Positions 14,805-59,522 of a stretch of 64,000 nt of DNA are shown here, one piece after another. Every line of letters starts with the position of its first letter. Position 1 is the first letter of the stretch. A program made the translations under genes and the position numbers. Source of the DNA: Escherichia coli (GTDB lineage Bacteria > Pseudomonadota > Gammaproteobacteria > Enterobacterales > Enterobacteriaceae); assembly GCF_003334385.1 (NCBI RefSeq), contig NZ_QOWN01000023.1, one strand, 5' to 3'. The notes beneath the pieces are model-generated. The model was not told the origin of the DNA and searched no databases. It was given only the letters and a program-made list of their open reading frames with translations.

Positions 14805-15180
<376 letters not shown>

Positions 15181-57317: not shown

Positions 57318-58607
57318 ATGACGCGCCGTGCTATCGGGGTGAGTGAAAGACCGCCACTTTTACAGACAATCCCGCTTAGTTTGCAACATTTGTTCGCCAT
57401 GTTTGGTGCAACCGTCCTGGTGCCCGTCTTATTTCATATTAACCCGGCGACTGTACTGTTATTTAACGGTATTGGAACGCTGCTGTATCTCTTCATCTGT
57501 AAAGGGAAAATTCCGGCTTATCTTGGTTCCAGCTTTGCCTTTATTTCACCGGTATTGTTACTGTTGCCGTTAGGGTATGAAGTCGCGCTGGGCGGCTTTA
57601 TTATGTGCGGCGTGCTGTTCTGCCTGGTTTCTTTTATCGTGAAGAAAGCGGGGACCGGCTGGCTGGACGTGCTGTTTCCACCTGCGGCAATGGGCGCAAT
57701 CGTTGCCGTCATCGGTCTGGAGCTGGCGGGCGTAGCTGCCGGTATGGCGGGTTTACTCCCGGCTGAAGGGCAAACGCCAGACTCCAAAACCATCATCATC
57801 TCTATTACCACCCTGGCGGTCACGGTTTTAGGTTCCGTGCTGTTTCGTGGTTTCCTAGCAATTATCCCGATTTTAATTGGCGTGCTGGTGGGGTACGCGC
57901 TCTCTTTCGCAATGGGAATTGTCGATACCACGCCGATTATTAATGCTCACTGGTTTGCGCTGCCAACCCTCTATACGCCGCGCTTCGAGTGGTTTGCCAT
58001 TCTGACTATTCTGCCAGCGGCGTTAGTGGTTATTGCCGAACACGTAGGGCACCTGGTAGTAACGGCTAATATCGTCAAAAAAGATCTGCTGCGCGATCCA
58101 GGTCTGCACCGTTCGATGTTTGCTAATGGCTTGTCGACCGTGATTTCCGGCTTCTTTGGCTCTACGCCAAATACTACTTACGGAGAAAACATTGGCGTGA
58201 TGGCGATCACCCGTGTTTACAGTACCTGGGTTATCGGCGGGGCGGCGATTTTCGCTATCCTGCTTTCCTGCGTCGGTAAACTGGCTGCCGCTATCCAGAT
58301 GATCCCATTGCCGGTGATGGGCGGCGTTTCGCTGCTGCTTTATGGTGTCATCGGTGCTTCCGGTATTCGTGTTTTGATCGAATCGAAAGTGGATTACAAC
58401 AAAGCACAGAACCTGATCCTGACTTCCGTGATTTTGATCATCGGCGTCAGTGGCGCGAAGGTAAACATCGGCGCGGCGGAGTTAAAAGGTATGGCGCTGG
58501 CGACCATCGTCGGTATCGGCTTAAGTTTGATCTTCAAACTGATCAGTGTGCTGCGCCCTGAAGAAGTGGTGCTGGACGCAGAAGACGCGGATATAACAGA
58601 CAAATAA
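57318..58607 (+). CDS. uraA: Uracil:proton symporter (NCS2 family)
   Basis: 429 aa from [17 protein letters not shown]; multi-TM. Confidence 0.94.
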
Positions 58608-58656
58608 TGTACCGACCGGGCAGTGTTGCTGCCCGGTTCAAACATCATGGGATTCT

Positions 58657-59403
58657 GTGGTAAACTTCTCGCGATTTTGTGAAATCCTGGTTGAGGTATC
58701 TCTGAACACACCGGCACAGCTCTCTTTGCCACTTTATCTTCCTGACGACGAAACCTTTGCAAGTTTCTGGCCGGGGGATAACTCCTCTTTACTGGCCGCG
58801 CTGCAAAACGTGCTGCGTCAGGAACATAGCGGTTACATCTATCTCTGGGCACGCGAAGGCGCGGGGCGCAGCCATCTGCTGCACGCGGCTTGCGCGGAAT
58901 TGTCGCAGCGTGGCGATGCGGTGGGCTATGTCCCGCTGGATAAACGCACCTGGTTTGTTCCGGAAGTGCTCGACGGTATGGAGCATTTGTCGCTGGTCTG
59001 TATCGACAACATTGAGTGTATTGCAGGCGATGAGTTGTGGGAGATGGCGATTTTCGATCTCTACAATCGAATTCTGGAATCGGGCAAAACACGGTTGTTG
59101 ATCACCGGCGATCGTCCACCGCGGCAGTTGAATCTGGGATTACCGGATCTCGCGTCGCGACTCGACTGGGGGCAGATCTACAAATTGCAGCCACTTTCTG
59201 ATGAAGATAAGTTGCAGGCGCTACAGTTACGCGCGCGTTTGCGTGGTTTTGAACTGCCGGAAGATGTGGGGCGTTTCTTGCTGAAGCGGCTCGACAGAGA
59301 AATGCGCACGCTATTTATGACGTTGGATCAGTTGGATCGTGCGTCGATTACCGCGCAACGTAAGCTGACCATTCCGTTTGTGAAAGAAATTCTGAAGTTG
59401 TAG
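58657..59403 (+). CDS. hda: DnaA-inactivating AAA+ protein Hda (likely true start at CTG 58702)
   Basis: AAA+ motifs (Walker A-like [10 protein letters not shown]; box VII); longest ORF from 58657, but from memory translation starts at a CUG 15 codons downstream. Confidence 0.88.
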
Positions 59404-59404
59404 A

Positions 59405-59522
59405 TAAGGTGTTTATTGTCGGATGCGGCGCGAACGCCTTATCCGAACTACGCGAAGTTAATCCATAGTATTCGTAGGCCGGATAAGACGTGGCAAGCGT
59501 CGCATCCGGCAATGTGCTTCAA
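59405..59522. repeat. Two REP palindromes (BIME) between hda and yfgD
   Basis: TGTCGGATGCGGCGCGAACGCCTTATCCGAACTAC ... GTAGGCCGGATAAGACGTGGCAAGCGTCGCATCCGGCA. Confidence 0.85.

Follow-up and report, generated by a model that had tools for sequence, protein, structure and literature searches.

The hda locus

The window is the whole stretch of DNA that was analysed, 64,000 nucleotides of Escherichia coli. The gene at 58657–59403 on the plus strand is E. coli hda. Every one of the 5,426 complete E. coli genomes matches a 1-kb query from around the site at 95% identity or more, some of them at 100%, and the annotation of the match reads uraA and then "hda: DnaA inactivator Hda". The stop codon of uraA, the upstream neighbor, ends at 58607. 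An ArsC-family gene (arsC/yfgD) and bepA lie downstream on the opposite strand. The same uraA, arsC-yfgD and bepA context surrounds hda in Yersinia, Erwinia and Dickeya.

Hda is a low-copy protein that switches off DnaA, the replication initiator, after every round of initiation. The literature on the identical protein describes Hda as stimulating, together with the beta clamp, the hydrolysis of DnaA-bound ATP. The Hda encoded in the window matches the crystallized protein of PDB entry 5X06 (DnaA regulatory inactivator Hda) with 100% identity across 233 residues. Pfam domains PF00308 (Bac_DnaA AAA+) and PF22688 (Hda lid domain) were precomputed for the cluster that holds it. The gene does not differ from that of E. 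coli K-12 (b2496, NP_416991.2; UniProt HDA_ECOLI): protein, neighbors and annotated start are the same. The features discussed below are listed here in the order of their positions.

58614–58638, plus strand: strong hairpin CCGGGCAG...CTGCCCGG just past the uraA stop codon; terminator-like, with no U-tract
58637–58642, plus strand: possible −35 element TTCAAA; matches TTGACA at four of six positions and lies 18 nt upstream of the −10 hexamer
58657–58701, plus strand: spurious 15-codon extension of the ORF; no 3-nt periodicity, contains indels, excluded by RefSeq
58658–58666, plus strand: extended −10-like motif TGgTAAACT (TG at 58658–58659, hexamer at 58661–58666), overlapping GTG 58657
58672–58674, plus strand: predicted transcription start, placed by the sigma-70 position rule about 7 nt past the −10 hexamer
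58693–58697, plus strand: Shine–Dalgarno sequence GAGGT, 4 nt upstream of the CTG
58702–58704, plus strand: CTG initiation codon of hda; the RefSeq CDS start, and supported by the literature
58702–59403, plus strand: hda CDS, DnaA regulatory inactivator Hda; 233 codons and a stop codon, 702 nt
58717–58734, plus strand: beta-clamp-binding motif QLSLPL, codons 6–11 counted from the CTG

Two other observations were made around the gene. REP-type palindromic units (GTCGGATGCGGCG / GCCGGATGCGACG), arranged as nested inverted repeats, occupy the intergenic region between hda and arsC at 59415–59513. The window holds 16 copies of the unit where 3.7 would be expected, and some of them form a regular array at 14813–15169. 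An antisense RNA 3′ end lies inside hda, at MG1655 position 2618272 (+), approximately window position 59206 (Term-seq supplement of Adams et al. 2021, eLife).

The longest ORF and the annotated start

The longest ORF at the locus spans 58657–59403 (+) and would encode 248 amino acids. An earlier note on this DNA had it begin with an ATG at 58657. The coordinate is correct, but the codon there is GTG (58657–58659); the nearby ATG at 58647–58649 is out of frame with hda. The same note proposed that Hda instead starts at a CTG 15 codons further on. A CTG is indeed present in frame at 58702–58704, exactly 15 codons past the first codon of the longest ORF. An in-frame CTG is by itself unremarkable, because there is a second one at 58687–58689. 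This second CTG lacks a Shine–Dalgarno sequence, and the stretch around it is poorly conserved and contains indels. The CTG at 58702 is set apart by the GAGGT 4 nt upstream of it and by its invariance across species.

The CUG start of hda is already known: it was published in 2008 and is present in RefSeq, UniProt and the PDB. Experimental proof that the codon is used comes from the literature, while the sequence features, the conservation and the survey of annotations come from the present analysis. As cited in EcoGene 3.0, the CUG start was described by Su'etsugu et al. 2008 (J Biol Chem 283:36118). According to the same source, N-terminal sequencing of native Hda has been reported and gave M-NTPAQ. 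Chain E of 5X06, as deposited, consists of a 20-residue tag followed by M-NTPAQ..., so that the Hda part begins at the residue encoded by the CTG. The clamp motif is numbered 6-QLSLPL-11 by Kim et al. 2017, that is, counted from the CTG start. The RefSeq hda CDS begins at the equivalent of window position 58702 in all five E. coli genomes sampled (strain 720632, K-12 MG1655, PMV-1, B1172 and E24377A). In MG1655 coordinates this base is 2618776 on the minus strand; window position 58657 is 2618821, and the predicted transcription start corresponds to 2618804–2618806. RefSeq, EcoGene 3.0, the 5X06 construct and our comparison of Enterobacterales sequences, described below, all agree on this start. 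The literature search returned no further useful mention of the hda CUG start, the hda promoter or initiation profiling.

The databases hold several lengths of the protein. The 233-residue form is the UniRef/RefSeq entry HDA_ECOLI. A 248-residue form is common in Logan, ENA, JGI and some NCBI submissions, and a 241-residue form occurs in Salmonella. Predictions of 225 residues ("MPLYLPDD..."), which start at a TTG at codon 9, are annotated in some genomes. The expectation that automated annotation would over-extend hda is therefore borne out for longest-ORF and Prodigal-type callers, which give the 248-residue form, but not for the curated RefSeq pipeline, which uses the CTG.

Conservation of the CTG codon

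We took hda and its flanks from 80 Enterobacteriaceae species, and counts are given over 81 Enterobacteriaceae sequences. Six further Enterobacterales (Yersinia, Erwinia, Dickeya, Photorhabdus, Serratia and a Proteus-like contig) bring the total to 87 sequences. The start position is CTG in all 87 and is never AUG, GUG or UUG.

The strength of this invariance can be judged from other codons of the same gene. Among the 81 Enterobacteriaceae sequences, 31 alignment columns are leucine throughout. Codon 1 is the only one of these in which the codon does not vary; the other 30 vary synonymously. Degenerate columns with an invariant amino acid number 163, and only three of them, codon 1 included, keep a single codon. 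Ranking the columns in this way is a fair comparison because one phylogeny is common to all of them. The ranking shows a constraint on the nucleotides of codon 1 that goes beyond encoding leucine. The other two codon-invariant columns among the 163, across the 81 species, are CCG (Pro4, 58711–58713) and AGT (Ser21, 58762–58764). Codon 4 of hda may belong to the initiation region.

The earlier note had suggested comparing the conservation of the first 15 codons with that of the rest of the ORF. We made this comparison, and its outcome clearly favors the CTG start. Downstream of the CTG, the first, second and third positions of the codons have a mean conservation of 0.95, 0.99 and 0.68, and third-position variation begins immediately 3′ of the CTG. 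The 45 nt upstream of it are non-coding in pattern. They have no codon periodicity, their indels are not multiples of three, and in most species they contain in-frame stops. Stops or frameshifts are found even in an Escherichia genome (L004) and in Salmonella. We read 58657–58701 as non-coding DNA made up of promoter and 5′ UTR.

Many of these genes offer no conventional start codon in this region at all. In 47 of the 87 sequences (46 of the 81 Enterobacteriaceae), the frame contains no ATG, GTG or TTG from the closest stop upstream up to the CTG. Upstream of the CTG the reading frame stays open for only 4–14 codons in 60 of the 81, and for only six codons in 27 of the 81. Downstream, none of the 87 sequences has a canonical in-frame start before codon 9, so that initiation at the first such start would cost part or all of the clamp-binding motif. 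The CTG is thus the sole route to a functional Hda in about half of the species.

The Shine–Dalgarno sequence and the start region

The Shine–Dalgarno sequence GAGGT is present in 87/87 sequences, and its 4-nt spacer to the CTG is kept in 85/87. The predicted pairing with the 3′ end of 16S rRNA is −6.9 kcal mol−1 for CTG 58702, −4.0 kcal mol−1 for GTG 58657 and −1.7 kcal mol−1 for the TTG at codon 9. The residues "EV" appear conserved in over-extended protein predictions because GAGGT is read in frame.

The 5′ UTR and start region are not predicted to fold more stably than shuffled sequence does (z = +0.86). On this ground a structured regulatory 5′ UTR around the CUG was rejected. A start region predicted to be unstructured is in keeping with an initiation site that is accessible.

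In Yersinia, Erwinia and Dickeya the Shine–Dalgarno sequence reads GAGGTG, which places a GTG in frame two codons upstream of the CTG. NCBI and other annotations begin a 235-residue protein at this GTG in the three genera. The GTG has no Shine–Dalgarno sequence of its own. The 235-residue forms are probably two-codon over-extensions of a CUG-initiated hda.

The region between uraA and the CTG

The segment 58605–58660, which begins at the end of uraA, has a predicted folding energy of −24.9 kcal mol−1 (z = −3.9). The hairpin stem within it is kept across Enterobacteriaceae by paired changes, as in CCGGGCGG/CCGCCCGG, CCGGGTGG/CCACCCGG and CCAGGC/GCCTGG. The terminator scan did not call this hairpin. 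It may terminate transcription of uraA or stabilize the transcript.

The GTG at 58657 lies within a second conserved element. The pattern TGnTAnnnT is found in 87/87 sequences, 42–48 nt upstream of the CTG. Its −10-like hexamer is TAAACT in 75 sequences, TAGACT in nine, TACACT in two and TAAGCT in one, and the first T, the second A and the last T are kept in all 87. The xTG triplet of the motif, which in E. coli is the GTG, shares the frame of the CTG in only 13 of the 87 sequences, fewer than the one-third that chance alone would give. That E. coli has an open frame from the GTG is therefore a chance result of spacer length. The TGnTAnnnT motif is probably the extended −10 element of a sigma-70 promoter belonging to hda itself.

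The sequence GGTTC at the 3′ edge of the uraA hairpin is almost invariant in the alignment. This conserved flank may double as the −35 region of hda. Transcription from sigma-70 promoters starts about 7 nt past the −10 hexamer. With the predicted start at approximately 58673, the 5′ UTR would be about 28 nt long, and transcripts from the candidate promoter would not contain GTG 58657. We infer both the promoter and its start site from the positions and conservation of these motifs. The proposed promoter was not called in the consensus promoter scan. The published supplements that were searched gave no hda 5′ end; only an antisense 3′ end was seen in them.

The clamp-binding motif in the wider Hda family

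We searched 1.84 billion representative proteins and obtained 150 relatives of Hda, mostly at 40–55% identity. The clamp motif was located in 126 full-length distant Hda representatives. In 95 of these its glutamine stands at residues 2–8, with residue 4 the most frequent position. In E. coli the glutamine is residue 6 in the CTG form and residue 21 in the 248-residue form. The proteobacterial homologues Hda and HdaA (PDB IDs: 3BOS and 3SC3; Caulobacter HdaA) are DnaA-related AAA+ proteins. As in E. coli, their clamp motif is near the N terminus, mostly at residues 2–8.

Two outgroup loci of gammaproteobacterial type, at 64% and 52% identity, have a canonical GTG start 7–8 codons before the motif and an in-frame stop 2–8 codons further upstream. 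These two genes start at GTG, whereas E. coli hda starts at CUG. The CUG start is an Enterobacterales feature in this sample.

Alternative start sites

The original annotation, which longest-ORF callers reproduce, begins Hda at GTG 58657 and gives a protein of 248 residues. This codon does provide the longest ORF with a canonical start, and the resulting form is found in many Logan, ENA, JGI and NCBI records. However, its Shine–Dalgarno-like sequence is weak, at the −4.0 kcal mol−1 given above. It sits in the conserved promoter-like motif and is in frame in only the 13 sequences already mentioned, and in most relatives the 45 nt contain stops or frameshifts. With this start the clamp motif would fall at residue 21, whereas it stands at residues 2–8 in most of the homologues in which the motif was located. 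Both EcoGene 3.0 and RefSeq contradict it, and we consider a start at this GTG extremely unlikely. A compromise would be dual initiation in E. coli, in which the CUG yields the main 233-residue protein and uraA read-through transcripts that include GTG 58657 yield a minor 248-residue form. Such transcripts may exist because the uraA hairpin lacks a U-tract; read-through is conceivable on this ground and since the terminator scan leaves the hairpin uncalled. Both E. coli and E. albertii have an open frame running from the GTG. Against this, the long form is not conserved, which makes selection for it unlikely, and the Shine–Dalgarno match at the GTG is weak. The 15 additional residues are hydrophobic and would bury the N-terminal clamp motif. 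Dual initiation is, in our estimate, very improbable.

Initiation could also lie elsewhere, either at the TTG of codon 9 (58726, 225 residues) or at a near-cognate codon, CTG 58687 or ATC 58684. The 225-residue predictions in databases point to the first of these, and CTG 58687 is in frame. A start at the TTG, however, would remove Q6, L7 and S8 of the clamp-binding motif. The TTG has no Shine–Dalgarno sequence (−1.7 kcal mol−1), and in 37 of 81 species codon 9 is CTG rather than TTG. CTG 58687 and ATC 58684 also lack a Shine–Dalgarno sequence and lie in the variable stretch with indels. The chance that any of these codons is the start is close to negligible. GTG 58657, the TTG at codon 9 and the other near-cognate codons were thus each rejected on poor conservation, poor Shine–Dalgarno pairing or loss of the clamp motif. 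Taken together, the rival readings keep only a small share of the probability.

We are therefore nearly certain that hda starts at CUG 58702–58704 and encodes the 233-residue Hda. In this assignment the 15 codons upstream are non-coding and hold a probable −10 element and a 5′ UTR.

Proposed mechanism and comparison with other non-canonical starts

In the mechanism that we propose, the GAGGU 4 nt upstream of the CUG would position the 30S subunit. The fMet initiator tRNA would then read the CUG as methionine, giving the 233-residue protein. The exposed N-terminal QLSLPL (residues 6–11) would bind the DNA-loaded beta clamp, and the complex of Hda and clamp would stimulate hydrolysis of DnaA-bound ATP. 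The weakness of the CUG codon probably keeps Hda scarce; we infer this role in dosage. The invariant CUG fits selection for inefficient initiation that limits the Hda dose. Limitation of the dose by an inefficient CUG is reportedly not a new idea, having been proposed in 2008 by Su'etsugu and co-workers. Their abstract is said to propose that the inefficient CUG holds Hda at about 100 molecules per cell.

A conserved and inefficient start codon is also found in infC, the gene for IF3, which begins with AUU and forms a demonstrated autoregulatory loop through IF3. The likeness to hda lies in a start codon that is non-canonical, inefficient and conserved, and that limits or tunes expression. Unlike in infC, we know of no IF3-type feedback for hda. 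Another chromosomal gene with a true CTG start is yfjD, which is unrelated to hda. It is the second E. coli K-12 gene with a confirmed CTG start, predicted by conservation and inspection of the ribosome-binding site and confirmed by start-codon mutagenesis (EcoGene 3.0). The annotation errors went in opposite directions: the old annotation of yfjD was too short (TTG at codon 9), whereas that of hda was too long.

Confirming the CUG start of hda alters nothing in the field, and the comparative picture neatly confirms the known start but is not a discovery. The modest addition made here is comparative. Three elements are invariant in 87 Enterobacterales sequences: the CUG, the Shine–Dalgarno sequence and a probable extended −10 element in which the old "start codon" lies. 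Invariance of this kind offers a purely computational route to spotting such mis-annotation. The correct start matters to anyone expressing, tagging or modeling Hda, since the N-terminal clamp-binding motif must be exposed and the copy number is low. A more speculative reading is that Enterobacterales maintain the CUG as an active control point sensitive to the initiation fidelity exerted by IF3. We think this rather unlikely on present grounds. If it were true, the dose of Hda, and hence the licensing of replication, would be coupled to the state of the translation machinery.
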